From the NCBI GenBank assembly GCA_963706445.1, contig OY970160.1, positions 736,001-800,000 on the forward strand: a stretch of 64,000 nt of DNA. The letters run 5' to 3'. The number at the start of each line of letters is the position of its first letter. The stretch's first letter is position 1. Shown here piece after piece: positions 43,842 through 52,523 of the stretch. Under the pieces are notes generated by a model. It was not told where the DNA came from. It saw nothing but the letters and a program-made list of their open reading frames with translations, and ran no database searches. A program made the translations under genes and the position numbers. This stretch comes from an uncultured Nitrososphaerales archaeon (GTDB lineage Archaea; Thermoproteota; Nitrososphaeria; Nitrososphaerales; Gagatemarchaeaceae).

Positions 43842-44312
43842 TTGATGGGCGAGTACGTGAGCTGGCGAAGCAGGATTCTTGGAGCCGCCTTTGCCGCAGC
43901 ATTGAACATCTTTGTCTGGGTAGTCGTCCCCTATTTCTTGTACTCTGACCTCCTAAAGCTCGAGCCGACTGCAGTGAGCGCCGCCGGCTCTGGGATCTTC
44001 TCCCTGGACTTCATTTACACCTTCGGAGCGATCATAACGGGTCTCGAAGTGATGGGTGCCCTGACGAACGGGATGGCGGTCTCGGTCCCGCTGATCAGCG
44101 GTGGATACATTGCGTCGGCCTACTTCACCTACGCCTTGGTCAACGGGGGAACTTTCGCCCTCGAAGCGGCAGGTCTGAAATTCGCACTCTCGTTCCAACC
44201 GCTGCTTTTCCTGCTGATGCTCCCATCTCTATTTAGCGCATTCAAGGGGCCGATTTCTTTCTTGCTTGAGCGCACGGAGGCAGGGAGGGGAGCTTCTGAT
44301 CTTGCAGGTTAG
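43842..44312 (+). CDS. Four-TM membrane protein
   Basis: Hydrophobic; operonic. Confidence 0.65.
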   Translation: MMGEYVSWRSRILGAAFAAALNIFVWVVVPYFLYSDLLKLEPTAVSAAGSGIFSLDFIYTFGAIITGLEVMGALTNGMAVSVPLISGGYIASAYFTYALVNGGTFALEAAGLKFALSFQPLLFLLMLPSLFSAFKGPISFLLERTEAGRGASDLAG

Positions 44313-44374
44313 GCTACTGCAAGAGTCTGGAATTGCCACTTAGGCCTAGGCCTGCTTGACAATGCGCCCGAGGG

Positions 44375-44514
44375 ATTCGGGCTCCTACCTAGAATGTCTA
44401 GGCCCGGCCAGGGCGCACAACAGGGCGGTCTTCTCGGCTCCGACAATGGCTTGTTTCAGCCTAAGATCAACGGAGTAACCATCACGATCAACGGATCTGC
44501 TACCTAAACTGCAA
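44375..44514 (+). repeat. att-like repeat copy G plus ~100-bp extension shared with copy I
   Basis: GGGCTCCTACCTAGAATGTCTAGGCCCGGCCAGGGCGCACAAC...CTCGGCTCCGACAATGGCTTGTTTCAGC...AACTGCAA. Confidence 0.85.
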
Positions 44515-44565
44515 TCACATAGCTCGAATAACCATTTATCAGCCATCAATTTCCCCGAAGATGAC

Positions 44566-44973
44566 GTGGGCTCAACCCTACTCCTTCAGCCCATGATGTA
44601 CTTCGTTCCTTTCCGACTAGCCGCTCCCCAACGGGGATCAGAAGGAGACTCAGGTCAGACACCGATTCCAGCCGTTCTTGATCCTTCGTTCAAACGCATA
44701 ATGGTCTACGTCTTCGTTGCTAGCCGAGGGGGACAAAACAGGGCACGAATCGCGGAGATGCTTCGAGGAGAGCCGTCGAACCTCAACAGGATCTCAGAGG
44801 GCCTCAAGCTCGACTACAAGACGGTCCGTCATCACATCGGGGTTCTAGAGGAGAACGGAGTCATCATCTCGAATGCAAAGGGGGCTTACGGTGCGGTTTA
44901 TTTCCTGACCCCTTATTTTGAAAAATACTTCGAAATCGTCAAGGAAATGTGGGTTCGATTTGGGCATAGTTAG
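44566..44973 (+). CDS. ArsR-like winged-helix regulator
   Basis: SRGGQNRARI...LKLDYKTVRHHIGVLEENG...YGAVYFLT; true start probably downstream of 44566. Confidence 0.85.
   Translation: MGSTLLLQPMMYFVPFRLAAPQRGSEGDSGQTPIPAVLDPSFKRIMVYVFVASRGGQNRARIAEMLRGEPSNLNRISEGLKLDYKTVRHHIGVLEENGVIISNAKGAYGAVYFLTPYFEKYFEIVKEMWVRFGHS
44947..44968 (+). promoter_or_regulatory. Tandem 11-bp operator O1 (inside the 3' end of the HTH gene)
   Basis: ATGTGGGTTCG-ATTTGGGCATA; ends 33 nt before ATG 45001. Confidence 0.7.
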
Positions 44974-45000
44974 ATATAGCTTGAGAGGGTCGAATAGCTG

Positions 45001-45312
45001 ATGGCGTTCGACATCTTCTGGATGAACGTCGCTGCAGGTTTCGCGTTCGTCAACATCGCCTTCGTGGCTTTGTTGATAGGCCTCTACTTCAGGAGCTGGC
45101 AGAAGGTGCGTTCCTCGCTGAGCCTCGCACTGATTCTCTTCGCTGTATTCTTCCTGGTTCAGAATGGGGTAATCGTAGTCTTCTGGTACGTCCTCTACGG
45201 TCTTGGCCCTCCCTTCCAGTCGGTCGTGGTTTCAGCGGCCCCCTACCTTGCTGCAATCAACGCCCTTGAGACGCTTGCGCTCGCGAACCTAGTTAGGATC
45301 ACTTGGAGCTAG
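45001..45312 (+). CDS. Three-TM membrane protein, probable partner of the ArsR-like HTH
   Basis: Hydrophobic; Y..W.KVRS...LILFA.FFLVQN pattern; adjacent to the HTH gene. Confidence 0.75.
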   Translation: MAFDIFWMNVAAGFAFVNIAFVALLIGLYFRSWQKVRSSLSLALILFAVFFLVQNGVIVVFWYVLYGLGPPFQSVVVSAAPYLAAINALETLALANLVRITWS

Positions 45313-45365
45313 TCCAAGCCAGGCTGGCCATGCCCCAGCCCGGTTCGGCAGATCCCGTCAACCCG

Positions 45366-45387
45366 ATTTGGGTCGGATTTGGGCATA
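45366..45387 (+). promoter_or_regulatory. Tandem 11-bp operator O2
   Basis: ATTTGGGTCGG-ATTTGGGCATA; ends 33 nt before ATG 45420. Confidence 0.75.
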
Positions 45388-45419
45388 CCGCTAATTAGTC
45401 TGAACCAAGAATAATACCG

Positions 45420-45599
45420 ATGACCGGATATTCAGCCGACCTGAAGCAAGTATGTGGCTGTGCCTGGGCAGCTACCGGTGCCACTTCGGACGAAGTGACA
45501 AACAAAGTGGCGTCGCATGCGATGCAGGCTCACGGGATGGATGAGGTCCCAGCCGAAGTAGCCCAGAAGCTTCAGGCAGCCATGAGACCGACGATGTAA
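45420..45599 (+). CDS. DUF1059-like small metal-binding protein (59 aa, not in the ORF track)
   Basis: MTGYSADLKQVCGCAWAATGATSDEVTNKVASHAMQAHGMDEVPAEVAQKLQAAMRPTM; CxC plus HxxxxH. Confidence 0.8.
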   Translation: MTGYSADLKQVCGCAWAATGATSDEVTNKVASHAMQAHGMDEVPAEVAQKLQAAMRPTM

Positions 45600-45609
45600 G
45601 AACTCACTG

Positions 45610-45637
45610 GAGGCGCAAGCCTCCTCTTTCTTTTTCT
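45610..45637 (+). terminator. Hairpin plus T-rich terminator
   Basis: GAGGC-GCAA-GCCTC followed by CTCTTTCTTTTTCT directly after the DUF1059 gene. Confidence 0.55.
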
Positions 45638-45783
45638 GATCAGACGATCTTGCAATCCATCAAAAGGAAGCTTTGTCGAAGGAGAACAAGCCGTAGGTGA
45701 TTTTAGGCGAATTGGAGGGCACCCTTGAAGACAACAGCTGCGCCGAAACAAGAAGGTCGAGGCAGAGGGCGATTCATTTGCCG

Positions 45784-45805
45784 ATTTGGGCATAATTCTG
45801 GCATA
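45784..45805 (+). promoter_or_regulatory. Tandem 11-bp operator O3
   Basis: ATTTGGGCATA-ATTCTGGCATA; ends 35 nt before ATG 45840. Confidence 0.75.
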
Positions 45806-45839
45806 GCCTTTTCTACTTTTTGCACTCGATGCTCTTCCG

Positions 45840-46163
45840 ATGAATGACATAACAGATGAAAGTCGGCGCAAGTTTCTGAAGGTTGTGGCGCTTGGAGGGG
45901 TAGCTGTCGCTGCAACACCGCTCTTGATGAATGCCAAGATCCTGGGGTTGGGGTCAGCTTCCGTAAGCCCCGCTTTGGGGACAGGAACGGCATACGCACC
46001 TGTTTCAACTAAAACGGGTGGCGCCGGAGGGGACGATTCCACTTTGGTAGTCGTAGTGAAGAACGGCCAGGTCACAGGCTACAGGGGTGCGCAGAAGGTC
46101 GCCATGAATGACCTTGCGCTCGGATCCCAACTTCACACCTCCTTCGAGTCATACCTGGAGTGA
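45840..46163 (+). CDS. Small twin-arginine (Tat) signal protein
   Basis: Consensus SRRKFLK plus h-region; small C-terminal beta domain. Confidence 0.85.
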   Translation: MNDITDESRRKFLKVVALGGVAVAATPLLMNAKILGLGSASVSPALGTGTAYAPVSTKTGGAGGDDSTLVVVVKNGQVTGYRGAQKVAMNDLALGSQLHTSFESYLE

Positions 46164-46169
46164 TTGGAA

Positions 46170-47627
46170 ATGACATCCCACAGAGAGGCGCCGTCGATCT
46201 CTAAGGACCCGGTTGCGGACAATACAGATCTGTATGCGTTCGTCAGTCCCGACAAGCCGAACACAGTGACAATCCTGGCCAACTACATACCGCTTGAAGA
46301 GCCAGCTGGAGGCCCGAATTTCAATTCGTTCGGGGACGACGTACTCTACGAGATCAAGATCGACAATGACGCCGACGCCAAACCAGACATCACCTATCAG
46401 TTCACATTCAGGACTACGGTCGCAAACAAGAACACCTTCCTTTACAACACCGGTCCAATAGCAACGCTCGATTCGCCGAACTGGAACGTCCGTCAGTTCT
46501 ACAAGGTGACCGAAGTCAAGGGAGATGGCATCGCAAAGGTGCTTGGTGACAACCTTCCCTGCCCGCCGGTCAACATAGGTCCCCGGTCAACGCCCAGCTA
46601 TGCGAGCTTGGCCGACGCCGCGATCAAGGCCCTTTCCGACGGATCTTCGGTGTTCGCCGGCGCACGCGCGGACGGGTTCTACGTAGACCTTGGGTCGATC
46701 TTTGACCTGGGGACACTAAGGCCGCTCGAGTCCTACCACCTGATTCCAGTCCCGCCGAACGCTGCGGGGGTGAACGGACTTAAGGGATACAACTGCCACA
46801 GTATCGCTCTTCAGGTGCCCATCTCCAAACTGACGTCGGACGGTTCGGTACCAACCGACCCTAGCAAGCAAGAGGCTGTCCTTGGTTTCTGGGCTACAGC
46901 TAGTCGGCGAGCGGTCAGGGTTCCAGACGGAGCCTCTTCGAGCCAGGCATTCGAAGAAGCGGGGCCCTTCGTTCAGGTGTCCAGACTCGGAAACCCTCTG
47001 ATCAACGAGGTCGTAATTCCGGTCGGTACGAAGGACCAGTGGAACACTGTACAACCCTCGATGGACTCGGCCTTCGCCCCCTACTATCTAGTCCCCGAGC
47101 TCTCCAAGCTTCTGCCGGTACTGTACCCGGGCGTCTTCCCCAATCTGGCCGGCCTCTCAGGCTCAGCCGCCCCCAGAAACGACCTCGCAGCCATTCTTCT
47201 GACGGGTATCCCGAGCGGGATAATCACCGGGTTCCAGAACTTCACTGGTGCGACTCAGGCAGACATGCTCAGGCTGAACGTCGCCATCCCTCCAAACACA
47301 ACCGCGGGGGCCAACCCGCCTTTCAACAGCTCGAGCAGGCAGGGGATCCTTGGCGGAGACCTGGCGGGCTATCCCAACGGCCGACGGGTGTTCGACAACG
47401 TCGTGGCCATAGAGCTCCGAGCCATAGCGGGTCTCACATACCCCCTTGTCATGCCCAGCTACACCCCTGACGCGGCCGCAGGAATTTTGGCCGACACCGA
47501 CACCCCAGATCCAGGTGTCACAAAGTTCTCTGACGCCCAGAACGATGTCACCAACGCGCCATACCTGGGAAGCTTTCCATACCTCGCGACTCCCTACCAG
47601 GGTTACGAGCATGAGCACGACCCCTAG
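46170..47627 (+). CDS. DUF4331 family protein without a signal peptide
   Basis: SHREAP...DNTDLYAF, QVSRLGNPLINEV, DMLRLN and GYPNGRR motifs; SD GGAGTGA before ATG 46170. Confidence 0.88.
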   Translation: MTSHREAPSISKDPVADNTDLYAFVSPDKPNTVTILANYIPLEEPAGGPNFNSFGDDVLYEIKIDNDADAKPDITYQFTFRTTVANKNTFLYNTGPIATLDSPNWNVRQFYKVTEVKGDGIAKVLGDNLPCPPVNIGPRSTPSYASLADAAIKALSDGSSVFAGARADGFYVDLGSIFDLGTLRPLESYHLIPVPPNAAGVNGLKGYNCHSIALQVPISKLTSDGSVPTDPSKQEAVLGFWATASRRAVRVPDGASSSQAFEEAGPFVQVSRLGNPLINEVVIPVGTKDQWNTVQPSMDSAFAPYYLVPELSKLLPVLYPGVFPNLAGLSGSAAPRNDLAAILLTGIPSGIITGFQNFTGATQADMLRLNVAIPPNTTAGANPPFNSSSRQGILGGDLAGYPNGRRVFDNVVAIELRAIAGLTYPLVMPSYTPDAAAGILADTDTPDPGVTKFSDAQNDVTNAPYLGSFPYLATPYQGYEHEHDP

Positions 47628-47657
47628 GCCGGTTCCGGACTTCGTAGGTTTCCATCC

Positions 47658-48695
47658 ATGAAGCTGGGACTGCCAATGGGGGACAGGATGGCGGTCCTAG
47701 GAATCTACGCAGCCATCGGGGCAGCCACGGCAGCCAGCCTGATGATAGCAGGGATCGTCGGGCGCTCGTTCGCCTTGATTCTGGGATTGAGCATGACGAC
47801 CTACATCCTCGGAGTCAGGCACGGGCTCGATGCGGACCATATTGCAGCCATAGACAACGTCACCAGGAGGCTGATGAACGGGGGGAAGCGCCCCATGACG
47901 GTGGGGACCTGGTTCTCGCTCGGGCACTCTACCATAGTCTTCGCTCTCACAGCTGGGATCACGATCGGGGCGCGCCAGGTCCTAGCCGCCGAGCCCGAGA
48001 TAGCCGGAATGGGATCTATCCTGGGTACGGGCATATCGGCCGCCTTTCTCTGGCTCATCGGGACAGTCAACCTCCTTTCTGCCATCCAAATCTACCGAAC
48101 GCTGAGGGCTGTACACAGCGGGAAGAATCAGGGCGACTCCGCTGATATTGCCATCCAGGGCGGGGGCTTCTTCAGCAGGAGGATGGGCCGGCTCTTCGAC
48201 CTGGTTCGGAAGCCGTGGCAGATATACCCCATAGGCATCCTGTTTGGGCTCGGGTTCGACACCGCGACCGAGGTCGCGCTAGTCTCGCTCAGTGTGCTCG
48301 CCGCGGTGGGGGGCTCGATCCCGGTCTGGACCGTGCTCATATTGCCAGCTACCTTCAGCTGCGGGATGGTGCTGGTCGATACTACCGACGGTGTGATGAT
48401 GACTTTTGCCTACGAATGGGCGTTTCTCCAACCTATGCGCAAGATATTCTACAATCTGACCTTGACCGTAGGGTCAATCGTCGTAGCCTTCCTGATAGGG
48501 GGGGTCGAGGTGCTCCAGGTCCTCTCACAGGGGCTGGGCCTTAGGGGCTTTTTCTGGACCTGGATGGGGGGAATCGACTTTGAAACCCTGGGGCTGTTCG
48601 TAGTTGCGGCGTTCGGGGCCACATGGGTCGTATCGTTGTCCTTGTACCGGTTCAGGCGCTACGGAAGGACCCTGGCGTTGCCCGCCGGCCCGTGA
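47658..48695 (+). CDS. NiCoT nickel/cobalt permease, copy 2
   Basis: RHGLDADHIAAID, FSLGHST and LGFDTATE signatures. Confidence 0.93.
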   Translation: MKLGLPMGDRMAVLGIYAAIGAATAASLMIAGIVGRSFALILGLSMTTYILGVRHGLDADHIAAIDNVTRRLMNGGKRPMTVGTWFSLGHSTIVFALTAGITIGARQVLAAEPEIAGMGSILGTGISAAFLWLIGTVNLLSAIQIYRTLRAVHSGKNQGDSADIAIQGGGFFSRRMGRLFDLVRKPWQIYPIGILFGLGFDTATEVALVSLSVLAAVGGSIPVWTVLILPATFSCGMVLVDTTDGVMMTFAYEWAFLQPMRKIFYNLTLTVGSIVVAFLIGGVEVLQVLSQGLGLRGFFWTWMGGIDFETLGLFVVAAFGATWVVSLSLYRFRRYGRTLALPAGP

Positions 48696-48717
48696 AGATC
48701 CGTTTTCGCCGATGGCC

Positions 48718-49140
48718 CTAGCTGTTCGCGTGAAATATTCCTGAGCTTACTTCCTCGGTGACCTTGAGCCCTCCAGGTGGCACATTGAAGGGGCAGATGA
48801 TCCCCCGGCTGTATTTGACCGCTCCCTCGACCTCGATGACTGGGAACTCATCCTCGGTTGCCCGGGCGGCATGGGACCGGACTTCCTGTTCCGTCTGACA
48901 CAGCCTATCCAAGTTCTTGAGCAGGTCCTCCCCTTTTTCCGTGTAAATCCGACGTATCTTGGCCTCTCCCTCAAGCTGTTTTGACACCTCAGAATCGTAC
49001 AGAAAGACCCTGTCTCCCTCTTCGATCAGATCCCAATCGTCGCTCTTCTCCCCTACGTAAAGAACCCTATGATGAACGATGTTGTGCACCGCTTCGCGGC
49101 CCATGGGAATTATTATCCCTGTCACTCCGTTTTTCCCCAT
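48718..49140 (-). CDS. PUA/ASCH-like (DUF365-like) protein
   Basis: GDRVFLYDS...LEGEAKI...KY pattern. Confidence 0.6.
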   Translation of the reverse strand: MGKNGVTGIIIPMGREAVHNIVHHRVLYVGEKSDDWDLIEEGDRVFLYDSEVSKQLEGEAKIRRIYTEKGEDLLKNLDRLCQTEQEVRSHAARATEDEFPVIEVEGAVKYSRGIICPFNVPPGGLKVTEEVSSGIFHANS

Positions 49141-49198
49141 TTGTTGCTCGCCATCAATGGACGACTTTTGGCACTTTCGGAAGGGGTCCGTGAGAATT

Positions 49199-49492
49199 CT
49201 AGGAGAATTTCTTTACGCGCTGCACGATTTCGGCCGAAATCTGATCTGAGGTCTTTCCTTCGGTGCTTATCCCAAGCTGCTTCGCTGTATTGCGAAGCGC
49301 GTCAGGGGAACCAACTTCCGCCTCCGGGTGACCTGCCACAGGCGCTGCGGTTTCCTTCCCACCCATCTCGAATTCGTTCTTCGCCCTCCCTAAACTCCTT
49401 GCCAGTTGAGGGATCTTTGTAGGGCCCCACATCAAGACAACCACAGCGATTGCCCCTATGATCAACAGCTGAACCGGGTCTGCGAATACCAT
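49199..49492 (-). CDS. tatA: Twin-arginine translocase TatA/E subunit
   Basis: TM + WGPTKIPQLARSLGRAKNEF; archaeal-type tail LGISTEGKT. Confidence 0.9.
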   Translation of the reverse strand: MVFADPVQLLIIGAIAVVVLMWGPTKIPQLARSLGRAKNEFEMGGKETAAPVAGHPEAEVGSPDALRNTAKQLGISTEGKTSDQISAEIVQRVKKFS

Positions 49493-49525
49493 TGAAAGAC
49501 GAAGTGCGTACTGCAGATATTAGCT

Positions 49526-49547
49526 TATGCCAGATTTTGGCCCAAAT
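49526..49547 (-). promoter_or_regulatory. Tandem 11-bp operator O4
   Basis: Minus strand ATTTGGGCCAA-AATCTGGCATA; ends 34 nt before tatA ATG 49492. Confidence 0.72.
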
Positions 49548-49570
49548 CCCGGACGGACTTCCCCGGCTAG

Positions 49571-49638
49571 GTAGGGCGCCTTCAGCTCAACGGACAACGC
49601 CCGGCCAGGGCGCCTCCTTCCAATGTAGGCGCCCCAAC
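49571..49638 (+). repeat. att-like repeat copy H followed by an inverted left arm
   Basis: GTAGGGCGCCTTCAGCTCAACGGACAACGCCCGGCCAGGGCGCC; then GTAGGCGCCCCAAC (49625-49638), the reverse complement of the arm. Confidence 0.72.
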
Positions 49639-49849
49639 GTACTCATAGACTAGGAACATCAGATGAACTAGTGACTTACTTCCATGACCACGGGAAGAAG
49701 CTGGAAGCGACCATTCTCAGGACGGAGAGCGAAGACTTCCCCTGTCGGCTGAAGCACAGAGTCTTGACCATTCTCTGCATTGGCGAAGAAGTCCCTGAAT
49801 GCCGGCCAGTGTTTGTGAATCGCAGAAGAGGCTGGTTCCCTCAATAGTT

Positions 49850-51376
49850 CTATCGCATATCGGGGGGCAGCTCTCCTGCCTCCAAGTCATCCTCTGTTAT
49901 TCCTCGGCACTTGGCATATGCCGCCCTATAGCCACGGAGTAGGTCACGGCTTTCTCCGAGGACGTATTCCAAAGTATCCAATCGATTCGAGTCAATCAGC
50001 GAGCTGTTCTTGTATCGTCCAGTGTTCTTATCGTAGCCCATGGCTTCGTTTGCTGCATCCCAATCCCGTTTTTGCTTGAGGTACACATCTAGGGCTTTCA
50101 GATAGGCTGCTTCCGCTTCGGCGCACGGATCCGGTGCGGCCGGATTCGGAGGCGGGGGTTCGAGGGGGGGAGCAGTCTTTGGAGCCGCCGCCGGAGGGGG
50201 GATAGGCACCGCGGGAGTAGGGGGTGCAGCTGGGGTCGGAATGCCTGGCGGCTCTTCTGGCGGTGCAGTCGCCGCTATCTCAGCCTCCAGCTTCTCCATG
50301 AACGTGTCTTCTTCCAACGGCGGTTGACCAGGAAGATACTCCGGCTCCAACCCTAGGTCATCTCCTGGGGGCTTTCCTGACAGCGGAGGTGGACCAGGAG
50401 GCTTGGGCGGGGGGTTAGCCGCTCCCTCCTTCTCGTCGTCCTCATCCCCTCCAGAGAAATACCAGTACAGGAATATTGCAGCGCCGATACCCACAAACGC
50501 AACCAAGAGCTCCCAGGCCAAGGCACCATTAGTGGTCGTGCCGCTGCTTGCTGTTGAACTACTGGAGCTCGAAGATGGGCTCGTCGTCGTATTACTGCTA
50601 GGAGAAGTGGTCGATACTACAGATGTCGTCGTGTTCGTAGCTTGACTGACCGTGATATTGGCGATGGGAGAAGTGACTGTCATAGGCAGACTGGCGTTGT
50701 CGGTCACCTGGAGCTCGAAATGCCAGATCCCTGCAGTGGAAAGATTGCCTGTTGGAACTGTCGGTGGGGGTGTAGCTGTGCAAGCGAAGGGGTTCCCCAT
50801 GACCACAAAGGCGTTGAGTTCGGGAGCCCACACAAGCCACTGGCATGCGTAGGGTGGTGTCCCTCCGCTGAACGGCGTCGTAGTGGTGAGGGTGACTGAC
50901 TGGCCGGCGTTGACCGTAGGCTGAGAGACGGAGATCACGGGAGCCACGAGGGCGGGGTTGACGATCGCCGTGGCGTTGGCCAAGGCGGTACCCAGAGAGC
51001 CCGCGTTCAACAGCGCGCAGAATGGAACAGTAGCTGGGGTTTGAGATGGCGTCAGCGGGGGGGTTGTGAAATTGTCTGACGGTCCAGACTGGAGTGGTGG
51101 TGTGGGGCACCCCGGCGTCCCGAAGCCGGAGGACCAGGTTATCGTATAGGGGAATCCTGATGGCACTCCGCTTACTTGGGCTCTGAAATGAGCGGACCAC
51201 CCGTAGTCGACCCTTTGATTGGGGACTGTGAGTGTGACACCACCCTGGGCGTGCGCTACCGGGGTGGCGACTGTGAAGACAAGGACCAGCAACGAACTGC
51301 CGAGAAGCAAACTAGAAACAAATGGCCCAAATCGGACGTCCGTTGGCCGCACGTTCACAATGCGACAGGACTGCAT
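49850..51376 (-). CDS. Single-pass membrane protein: two Ig/PKD-like domains, S/T stalk, TM, Pro-rich tail and terminal helical hairpin
   Basis: Signal ending AHA; GGTPPY..QW..ELQVTD motif; TM WELLVAFVG...; Pro-rich region. Confidence 0.7.
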   Translation of the reverse strand: MQSCRIVNVRPTDVRFGPFVSSLLLGSSLLVLVFTVATPVAHAQGGVTLTVPNQRVDYGWSAHFRAQVSGVPSGFPYTITWSSGFGTPGCPTPPLQSGPSDNFTTPPLTPSQTPATVPFCALLNAGSLGTALANATAIVNPALVAPVISVSQPTVNAGQSVTLTTTTPFSGGTPPYACQWLVWAPELNAFVVMGNPFACTATPPPTVPTGNLSTAGIWHFELQVTDNASLPMTVTSPIANITVSQATNTTTSVVSTTSPSSNTTTSPSSSSSSSTASSGTTTNGALAWELLVAFVGIGAAIFLYWYFSGGDEDDEKEGAANPPPKPPGPPPLSGKPPGDDLGLEPEYLPGQPPLEEDTFMEKLEAEIAATAPPEEPPGIPTPAAPPTPAVPIPPPAAAPKTAPPLEPPPPNPAAPDPCAEAEAAYLKALDVYLKQKRDWDAANEAMGYDKNTGRYKNSSLIDSNRLDTLEYVLGESRDLLRGYRAAYAKCRGITEDDLEAGELPPDMR

Positions 51377-51446: not shown

Positions 51447-51586
51447 TCGGGGGCGCCTACCTGAACTGACTATTCCCGGCCAGGGTGCACAACATGGCGG
51501 TCTCCTCGGCTCCGACAATGGCTTGTTTCAGCTTAAGAACAACGGACTAACCATCACGTTCAAGGAATCTGCTACCGAAACTGCAA
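51447..51586 (+). repeat. att-like repeat copy I plus ~100-bp extension shared with copy G
   Basis: GGGGGCGCCTACCTGAACTGACTATTCCCGGCCAGGGTGCACAAC...AACTGCAA. Confidence 0.85.
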
Positions 51587-51608: not shown

Positions 51609-52523
51609 CTATATTCTACTTGCAATTTCATTGAAAACTGCAGCCAAATCGGTACCCGCCGTTGTAACCGCCGCGATTATGACTACTGCAATAAGTCCCG
51701 CTACGAGGCCATACTCGATTTGTGTTACTAGTGGCGAAACAGTCGCAGACGCACTGTCGAGGAGGAAGTTATCGAAGCCGTTGCCACTCGCTGCATTCCC
51801 GATGAGTATGTTGCTGGAAGTGCTGATGAGGAAGAAGCCAACCCCGTTGTTGCTGTTCGCTCTGTTCCCGATGAGCGTGTTGCTGGACGAATAACCGAGG
51901 ACAAAGCCATCAAAGCTGTTGCTGTTCGCTGTGTTCCCGATGAGCGTGTTGCTGGAAGTGCTCACGAAGAGGAAGCCAGCCACGTTGTTGTCGCTCGCTG
52001 TGTTCCCGATTAGTGTGTTGCTGGAGGAGAGCACGAGGAAGAAGCCAACCTGGCCGTTACCATTCGCTGTGTTCCTGATGAGTACGCTGCTGGGAGAGCT
52101 GACGATGATGAAGCCGCCCCCATTACCATTCGCTGTATTCCCGATGAGTGTGTTGGAAGAGCTGCCGAGGCCAAAGCCGTCATAGAATCCCGTAACATTG
52201 CAGTTCATGACCGTGACTCTTGCTATCCCGGTAATCTCACTGATCCCTATGCTGTCAGCAGCGCCGGAGCCGCCTATGGTCTGCCCAGCGCAGTTGAGGG
52301 TTATACCATTAGCGCCTATGATGAGGCCGTTCCCTGGGCAGGGACCAATGCTGGCGTTCAGTGTAGTGCTGGTCGTAATTGTGGAGCCACACATTGGCGC
52401 CGGCGCAGCGTGGACAGGGACAGGCAAGAAAGCAAGGGTTGAACCAAGAATCATCGCGAGAAGCAAAATCGCATAGCGGGCCTTCCGAGTGCCCTTACCC
52501 ATTAGGGTTGCCGTGGCCTGCAC
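51609..52523 (-). CDS. Secreted right-handed beta-helix (NosD/CASH-type repeats) ending in an Flp-pilin-like segment
   Basis: ~23-aa repeats SSSNTLIGNTANxNxxxGF; C-terminus IEYGLVAGLIAVVIIAAVTTAGTDLAAVFNEIA. Confidence 0.82.
   Translation of the reverse strand: MQATATLMGKGTRKARYAILLLAMILGSTLAFLPVPVHAAPAPMCGSTITTSTTLNASIGPCPGNGLIIGANGITLNCAGQTIGGSGAADSIGISEITGIARVTVMNCNVTGFYDGFGLGSSSNTLIGNTANGNGGGFIIVSSPSSVLIRNTANGNGQVGFFLVLSSSNTLIGNTASDNNVAGFLFVSTSSNTLIGNTANSNSFDGFVLGYSSSNTLIGNRANSNNGVGFFLISTSSNILIGNAASGNGFDNFLLDSASATVSPLVTQIEYGLVAGLIAVVIIAAVTTAGTDLAAVFNEIASRI

Follow-up and report, generated by a model that had tools for sequence, protein, structure and literature searches.

We characterized a candidate regulon in an uncultured soil-type archaeon of the Nitrososphaerales, in which four transcription units carry the same tandem repeat in front of their start codons. 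The window that we analysed, a stretch of 64,000 nucleotides, corresponds to positions 736001-800000 of a 1,817,757-bp genome (58% G+C, one contig; labelled G000), and positions below are those of the window unless a contig or locus is named. At the left end lies the gene for a predicted ArsR/SmtB-fold winged-helix regulator (44566-44973, + strand), called here the HTH (helix-turn-helix) protein, which is 135 aa long when read from a GTG and 90 aa long from M46 in the source annotation. The next gene (45001-45312, +) encodes its membrane partner, a protein of 103 aa with three transmembrane segments (3-TM) and no Cys or His, which belongs to DUF8036 (PF26119). It is followed by a gene for a 59-aa DUF1059 protein with CGC and His motifs (45420-45599, +; Pfam E = 9e-13), and by an operon (45840-48695, +) encoding a protein with a twin-arginine translocation (Tat) signal (45840-46163), a DUF4331 protein (46164-47627) and a NicO/NiCoT nickel/cobalt permease (NiCoT, 47658-48695), with intergenic gaps of 0 and 30 nt. 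The last of the four units begins with tatA on the opposite strand (49199-49492, -; Pfam TatA_B_E). An earlier note on this DNA had called these genes in the same way, and its calls are upheld by matches to HTH_20 and HTH_5 (both below the Pfam cut-offs), DUF1059, a Tat-signal protein, DUF4331, NicO/NiCoT and TatA.

Tandem arrays before four promoters

Each array consists of two head-to-tail GATTTGGG units placed 11 bp apart, and three units are sometimes present in relatives. The spacing of 11 bp puts both units on one face of the helix. A search with the pattern ATTTGGGNNNNAWTYKGGCATA, allowing up to two mismatches, returned exactly four matches in the window and none in 100 dinucleotide shuffles. 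These four are also the only matches in the whole genome at this threshold, with three more appearing at three mismatches. A similar density elsewhere in the genome, which the earlier note had raised as a possible objection, was looked for and not found.

The first array, O1 (ATGTGGGTTCG-ATTTGGGCATA; 44947-44968, +), has one mismatch and is contained in the final codons of the HTH gene. O2 (ATTTGGGTCGG-ATTTGGGCATA; 45366-45387, +) precedes the DUF1059 gene, O3 (ATTTGGGCATA-ATTCTGGCATA; 45784-45805, +) precedes the Tat/DUF4331/NiCoT operon, and O4 (ATTTGGGCCAA-AATCTGGCATA; 49526-49547, -) precedes tatA. The distances from the end of the array to the ATG are 33, 33, 35 and 34 nt (ATGs at 45001, 45420 and 45840 on the + strand and at 49492 on the - strand). 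The codons that include O1 specify the end of the HTH protein, E-M-W-V-R-F-G-H-S-stop, with the TAG stop at 44971-44973. Four tandem repeats with an 11-bp period, their spacing to the start codons and the position of the first of them in the last HTH codons had all been proposed in the earlier note, and the coordinates agree with it on each point.

In G000 each array leads through a 4-nt CATA into an AT-rich box at about -31 to -23, and the repeat cores fall at about -54 to -48 and -43 to -37, upstream of the position of the transcription factor B (TFB) recognition element (BRE). The TATA box of the 3-TM gene, TTAGATATAG (44970-44979, +; -31 to -22 of the ATG), holds the stop codon of the HTH gene and hardly varies among 12 orthologous loci. 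The box of the DUF1059 gene is CTAATTAG (45391-45398, +), which is conserved in the intergenic footprint described below, and that of tatA, read from the sequence, is CTAATATC (49516-49523, -; -31 to -24 of the ATG). The box that follows O3, CTTTTCTAC, is a poor TATA box and the sole poor one among the four promoters. The suggestion that the TATA positions are generally weak did not hold, as the boxes of O1, O2 and O4 are clearly AT-rich.

A crude profile of 393 upstream regions from the genome has an A+T peak at -31 to -26 before the ATG, and AT-rich heptamers begin at -34 to -29. These regions have no conspicuous purine-rich peak for ribosome binding ahead of the start codon. Together, the spacing between array and TATA box and the genome-wide AT peak indicate the geometry of leaderless archaeal promoters, and the idea that a gap of about 33 nt fits leaderless transcripts agrees with the position of this peak.

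In G000 the proximal repeat of every array ends in CATA (44965-44968, 45384-45387, 45802-45805 and 49526-49529), at a place where relatives have CAAA, AAAA, TAAA or AATT. In O1 this ending changes the penultimate residue of the regulator from Gln to His. The concerted change to CATA points either to a reading of the segment as DNA or to an exchange of sequence among the sites.

We also considered a palindromic reading of the unit (TTTG-GG-CAAA). Only the proximal unit fits this reading, and not in every species, and the two arms would be spaced too tightly to accommodate a winged-helix dimer, so that direct repeats are preferred. Elsewhere in the regulon, the 3' end of tatA contains a perfect 16-nt palindrome, GATTTCGGCCGAAATC (49226-49241), 85 nt upstream of the start ATG of a 140-aa open reading frame (ORF) that is described below. 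Each half of this palindrome is one base off the operator unit GATTTGGG, and it may be an inverted-type site of the same HTH protein or a chance occurrence.

Conservation in the genus and across the archaea

An orthologue of the HTH protein is present in 11 of 55 genomes of the genus, at 55-69% identity, and every one of their loci has an array; the genomes of the genus that carry the motif are these same 11. A whole-genome motif scan of 61 relatives gave matches in 7 of 7 orthologue-bearing genomes, several in most of them, and the reversed-pattern control gave none. Single matches in G018, G045 and G057 and at G011:1007649 are inside long ORFs, outside any TATA or ATG context, and were counted as chance. 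The motif is conserved at orthologous promoters in the 11 HTH-bearing genomes, a form of conservation on which the regulon of the earlier note depended.

At these promoters 35-41 nt separate the array from the start codon, as placed by mechanical calling of gene starts in the relatives, and the orientation of the array is always the same. Divergent promoters have two separate arrays, one per direction. The O1 array before the 3-TM gene is kept in 12 of 12 orthologous loci, and an array precedes the DUF1059 gene in 10 of the 11 genomes with an HTH orthologue. Across these 10 genomes, the intergenic footprint before the DUF1059 gene conserves only the two repeats, AAA at the position of an A-rich BRE, CTAATTAG and the ATG.

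In the relatives, arrays are also found before other genes. One such gene encodes a 330-aa membrane-anchored Cys/His protein and is followed by a gene for a 174-aa membrane protein; the array here often has three phased units. A flavin adenine dinucleotide (FAD)-dependent oxidoreductase and a Rieske protein are encoded by genes that are transcribed divergently and have an array of their own. In one relative an array precedes a gene for a 239-aa secreted paralogue of the 330-aa protein. Both paralogues (330 aa, L027 7740-8732, +; 239 aa, L027 5250-5969, -) are exported and have a conserved Cys and an HxH motif, and no Pfam, NCBIfam or Atlas family matched either of them.

A gene for a ZIP-family metal transporter adjoins the module in two relatives, G011 and G062 (L029 6799-7611, -; L040 5932-6747, -). 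Pfam was run on L029 only, and the assignment of the L040 ORF to ZIP is based on the similarity of its N-terminus. In neither locus was an array detected in front of the ZIP gene.

G000 differs from its relatives in both the cargo and the location of the module. Neither the oxidoreductase nor the 330-aa protein was found in G000. Conversely, no DUF4331 was found in the 54 other genomes of the genus, nor, judging by adjacency, NiCoT or tatA, which makes O3 and O4 lineage-specific; O3 has no counterpart in relatives. Ten relatives have the HTH/DUF8036/DUF1059 module between an rRNA operon and btpA. At the corresponding place in G000 the rRNA genes and btpA are directly adjacent (G000:C1:1126-1917 onwards) with no module, and the module lies instead in a gene island of 5 kb at 780 kb, flanked by att-type sites. 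An exact copy of the 14-nt att-type core CCCGGCCAGGGCGC is located at 44403-44416 (+) and another CCCGGCCAGGGCGC core at 49600-49613 (+), so that att cores flank the regulon, as the earlier note had placed it; the left core is part of a 136-nt repeat (44379-44514 and 51451-51586). Pairwise identities fit either relocation or re-acquisition of the module. In G000 DUF4331, NiCoT and tatA may have been acquired and wired into array control. The regulon has changed its cargo, which comprises an FAD-oxidoreductase/Rieske pair and exported Cys/His proteins in the relatives, and a nickel/cobalt permease, DUF4331 and TatA here.

At the level of the order, we scanned 61 genomes with the pattern WTDTGGR-N4-AWWTGGR. 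Thirty-one of the 103 matches lie within 5 kb of an HTH-family gene, and 20 of the 69 HTH-family genes have a match within 1 kb, where fewer than one would be expected. The only other strict site in G000 is beside an HTH paralogue, before the gene for a membrane-anchored cupredoxin. This array reads ATATGGAGGAG-ATTTGGA plus TTCATATC (G000:C1:1428134-1428151, -; L022 1064-1081), with the HTH gene at 1428571 and a divergent DUF8036 gene, and the same arrangement at a cupredoxin gene occurs in G018 (L015). In L008, L019 and L020, where the partner gene diverges from the HTH gene or is set apart from it, the array occupies non-coding DNA ahead of the partner gene, and it is therefore more than a reflection of coding constraints.

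A domain-wide scan, using one genome per prokaryotic species, recovered at least 589 loci of the HTH-DUF8036 type. They occur in Nitrososphaerota, Thermoplasmatota, Woese-/Nanoarchaeota, Aenigmatarchaeota, Methanosarcinales, ANME-1, Methanobacteria, Methanomassiliicoccales, Halobacteria, Bathyarchaeia and Thorarchaeota. Across phyla, ATTTGGR repeats at an 11-bp phase are found beside the HTH-DUF8036 pair. The best 80 of these loci were analysed more closely, and in 72 of them a DUF8036 ORF follows the HTH gene. They contain 76 strict arrays, compared with one reversed-control match (378 kb searched); 42 of the arrays are at the 3' end of the HTH gene and 34 elsewhere, mostly before a TATA box and an ORF.

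In these distant loci the HTH protein typically ends in E-I-W-x-K-F-G-K-K-stop, encoded by GAGATTTGGGnnnAATTTGGGAAAAAGTAA followed by TTAAATA, and the ATG of the partner gene lies about 37 nt after the array. From this layout, the last codons correspond to the predicted operator and an A-rich BRE, and the stop codon opens the TATA box. Judged by sequence, the C-terminal codons of the regulator (I/M-W-x-K/R-F-G) double as the putative operator of the partner's promoter throughout the family, which makes this a clean case of a coding end that serves as both promoter and operator. A covariation between the YK(T/A) residues of the recognition helix and base 7 of the unit (G/A) looked promising among paralogues. 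It was dropped because distant YKT proteins have GGA units at the coding end, where this base is set by the codon after Trp.

Predicted regulator, membrane partner and probable sign of control

The HTH protein matches only winged-helix families in Pfam, and no sigma-70 family factor. Its scores are all below the cut-offs (HTH_20, 22.8 against 27; HTH_5, 20.2 against 22; NCBIfam HTH_metalloreg, NF033788, 23.7 against 55). It has 78 close homologues, labelled Thaumarchaeota/Nitrososphaerales by the sources. The AlphaFold model has a pLDDT (predicted local distance difference test) of 82, with residues 1-39 disordered, helices at 40-51, 56-68, 73-80, 84-96, 116-120 and 122-133, and strands at 100-102 and 112-114. 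The best matches to this model in the Protein Data Bank (PDB), found with Foldseek, are CzrA, SmtB and HlyU, with TM-scores (template modelling scores) of 0.63-0.71 on the target. According to the model, the protein is of the ArsR/SmtB fold with a C-terminal dimerisation helix.

The HTH protein shares with CzrA, SmtB and HlyU the helices, the recognition helix, the beta wing and the C-terminal helix. However, it differs from ArsR/SmtB proteins in scoring below the family cut-offs and in having neither Cys nor the alpha5 His/Asp metal site. No metal or thiol site (an alpha3 Cys pair or an alpha5 Asp/His cluster) was found in the protein, and no such column is conserved among 40 homologues. The protein lacks Cys altogether, and His occurs only in its recognition helix and as its penultimate residue. 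The site is also different, as ArsR/SmtB proteins use a 12-2-12 inverted repeat that overlaps the promoter, whereas the arrays described here are direct repeats upstream of BRE/TATA.

The 3-TM protein carries PF26119 as a precomputed Pfam domain, as do all 120 homologues among the matches listed, and it scores 0.96 for DUF8036 in an Atlas search. In the 12 orthologous loci of the 11 genus genomes, the DUF8036 gene is located directly after the HTH gene or divergent from it, with an array before it. In addition, all three HTH paralogues in G000 have a DUF8036 neighbour. The DUF8036 protein is the only predicted target of the system that never varies, and it most likely feeds back on the regulator, by membrane sequestration or by signal input; it could act as an antagonist or a sensor, or be no more than the principal effector.

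The HTH protein and the tandem site very probably belong together. This pairing is supported by the uniqueness of the site in the genome, by phyletic co-occurrence, by conservation at orthologous promoters, and by recurrence with paralogues and across phyla. It is somewhat less certain, though still probable, that O1-O4 are the operator arrays of this HTH protein (44566-44973) and that it controls the four units. In the mechanism that we propose, a dimer of the HTH protein, with an ArsR/SmtB fold that has no metal-site residues, would bind the arrays just upstream of the A-rich BRE and the TATA box. It would thereby control its DUF8036 partner, DUF1059, the Tat-protein/DUF4331/NiCoT operon and tatA, more likely than not by helping TFB and the TATA-binding protein (TBP) onto the adjacent core promoter. 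The targets of the arrays are exported, membrane or metal-related (NiCoT, TatA, the Tat substrate, cupredoxins and the exported Cys/His proteins), which suggests a signal related to the envelope or to trace metals. The earlier note had held that the HTH protein activates all four units. The part of this that stands is a locus-specific, conserved motif that travels with the HTH gene, in 11 of 55 genomes and across phyla, with the partner gene always under an array. The sign of control is a matter of relative likelihood.

We lean towards activation, because the arrays always lie just upstream of the BRE, their orientation is fixed and each divergent promoter has an array of its own. At about 40 promoters, arrays of two or three units end 4-7 nt before the TATA box and never lie over the TATA box or the start site. 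Several observations weigh against the mechanism proposed above. Most proteins of the ArsR/SmtB fold are repressors, which recognize inverted repeats in the form of symmetric dimers, and this fold is not known to read direct repeats arranged head to tail. Several target promoters have an ordinary-looking BRE and TATA box, so that an activator is not obviously needed. The HTH and DUF8036 proteins have no Cys/His ligands, and thus no visible sensor for a metal signal. Additionally, all sites are within about 6 kb of an HTH gene, and co-inheritance could leave room for a distant factor. Repression by the HTH protein is possible, if the less likely sign. In an ArsR/SmtB-style scheme, which we consider less likely than activation, the arrays would keep TFB off the promoter, and a signal acting through membrane sequestration by DUF8036, in the manner of SdpI and SdpR, would derepress the regulon. 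The top PDB matches CzrA and SmtB are repressors, there is a weak NCBIfam match to the SdpR autorepressor subfamily (NF033789), the membrane partner gene is adjacent in 72 of the 80 best loci, and the proximal repeat runs into the position of the BRE, with several BRE/TATA elements looking normal. However, none of the approximately 40 arrayed promoters has an array overlapping the TATA box or the start site, simple occlusion would need neither a fixed orientation nor one array per divergent promoter, and the match to the SdpR model is 18 bits against a cut-off of 100.

Two further explanations would remove the HTH protein from the promoters. The repeats might be read by another factor, such as a specialised TFB paralogue or a regulator encoded elsewhere, with the HTH gene merely co-inherited. 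The known sites are all near an HTH gene, and such linkage could mimic a pairing. However, the same association is seen from phylum to phylum, among paralogues of a single genome and in the different genomic context of G000, and no DNA-binding protein other than the HTH protein is constantly present. The contact made by TFB covers no more than about 6-7 bp beside the TATA box, which is too little to explain units 11 and 22 bp further upstream. We therefore regard another reader of the repeats as very unlikely. An even more improbable explanation is that the repeat has no regulatory role and is a by-product of the C-terminal peptide I/M-W-x-K/R-F-G combined with local promoter duplication. In the 80 distant loci, 42 strict sites do lie in the last HTH codons, where they encode W and F-G, and O1 and O2 have a 32-nt stretch in common with 78% identity. 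However, such a by-product would not account for the 34 strict sites outside the coding end, as compared with a single match of the reversed control in 378 kb, or for the sites in non-coding DNA before divergent partner genes. The intergenic footprint also keeps the repeats and not their flanks, and the spacing to the TATA box and the ATG is fixed.

More tentatively, the HTH-DUF8036 pair may be a portable, domain-wide archaeal module for transmembrane signalling, in which a membrane-controlled HTH protein would switch on exported, membrane and metal-handling proteins. If so, it would be a functional counterpart of the extracytoplasmic function (ECF) sigma/anti-sigma pairs or of SdpR/SdpI, carried in G000 by an integrative island. 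The site, the set of targets and the route of input are all known for only a few transcription factors of archaea, in which control linked to the membrane has barely been explored. The system described here offers a package that is open to test, with a defined protein, a phased site of 7+4 bp, a fixed promoter geometry and an obligatory membrane partner. The module spans the archaea from DPANN to Asgard and occurs in genetically tractable lineages (Methanosarcinales, Methanobacterium and haloarchaea).

Related systems and genomic setting

Archaeal activators typically bind just upstream of the BRE, and the sites of repressors overlap the promoter or lie downstream (PMC5512572). The EarA sites at the fla promoter of Methanococcus maripaludis are arranged in this way, as are those of TFB-RF1 and Ptr2 and the ara-box, and activators of the EarA type are proposed to assist the binding of TFB or TBP at the core promoter (PMC5512572). 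The arrays described here resemble the EarA, TFB-RF1 and Ptr2 sites in that several short sites are found immediately upstream of BRE/TATA. However, they differ from these in the strict 11-bp head-to-tail phasing, in the constant membrane partner gene and in the location of an array in the coding end of the regulator, and activation is putative in our case.

In Bacillus subtilis the ArsR-type autorepressor SdpR is sequestered at the membrane by its multi-pass partner, SdpI. The HTH-DUF8036 pair is similar in that a small ArsR-like regulator is encoded beside a small multi-pass membrane protein that it is predicted to control. However, the HTH protein scores only 18 bits against the cut-off of 100 for the SdpR model (NF033789), the partner is DUF8036 rather than SdpI, and the sign of control may be opposite. 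Similarly, ECF sigma/anti-sigma systems pair the gene for the factor with a gene for a membrane protein that the factor itself regulates, and most of the targets are exported or located in the membrane. Archaea have no sigma factors, and the HTH protein, unlike an ECF factor, would act as a site-specific winged-helix protein beside TBP/TFB. The site itself resembles the Pho box of PhoB/OmpR-type regulators, which consists of direct repeats with an 11-bp period, each with 7 conserved and 4 variable bases, that are read head to tail. The arrays have the same period and the same 7+4 organization, and they also lie next to the core promoter. However, the HTH protein has no receiver domain and no effector domain of the OmpR type, and the promoter is archaeal.

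A tandem promoter motif, GATTTAAA-N4-GATTTAAA, has been described in Nitrososphaera viennensis at genes repressed by copper limitation, near a gene annotated as 'HTH-ArsR' (Reyes et al. 2020, PMC7785015). The motif is conserved among related species and no regulator was assigned to it (Reyes et al. 2020, PMC7785015). It resembles the arrays in having two direct repeats of the GATTT type and an ArsR-like gene in the cluster. However, its sequence is different and its period is 12 bp rather than 11 bp. We regard the motif as an analogue and could not connect it with the HTH family: in a Nitrososphaera-sized genome of the order it has two matches, neither of them near the HTH-family gene. A preprint makes mention of a strongly regulated pair of a transmembrane protein and a regulator (DUF7521) in Haloferax. 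We found no publication on DUF8036, on DUF4331 or on the system of HTH protein, DUF8036 and array, and DUF1059 is touched on in two papers.

An Rfam scan of positions 44000-50000 matched no family, metal riboswitches included, and no PDB relative was found for the DUF1059 protein. Downstream of tatA and on the same strand, a 140-aa ORF (48718-49140, -) has a weak match to DUF365. It may be co-transcribed with tatA and, if so, would be part of the regulon. To the right of the third att core, the gene for a beta-helix-like surface protein (51609-52523, -) contains 69-nt tandem repeats (51758-52168).

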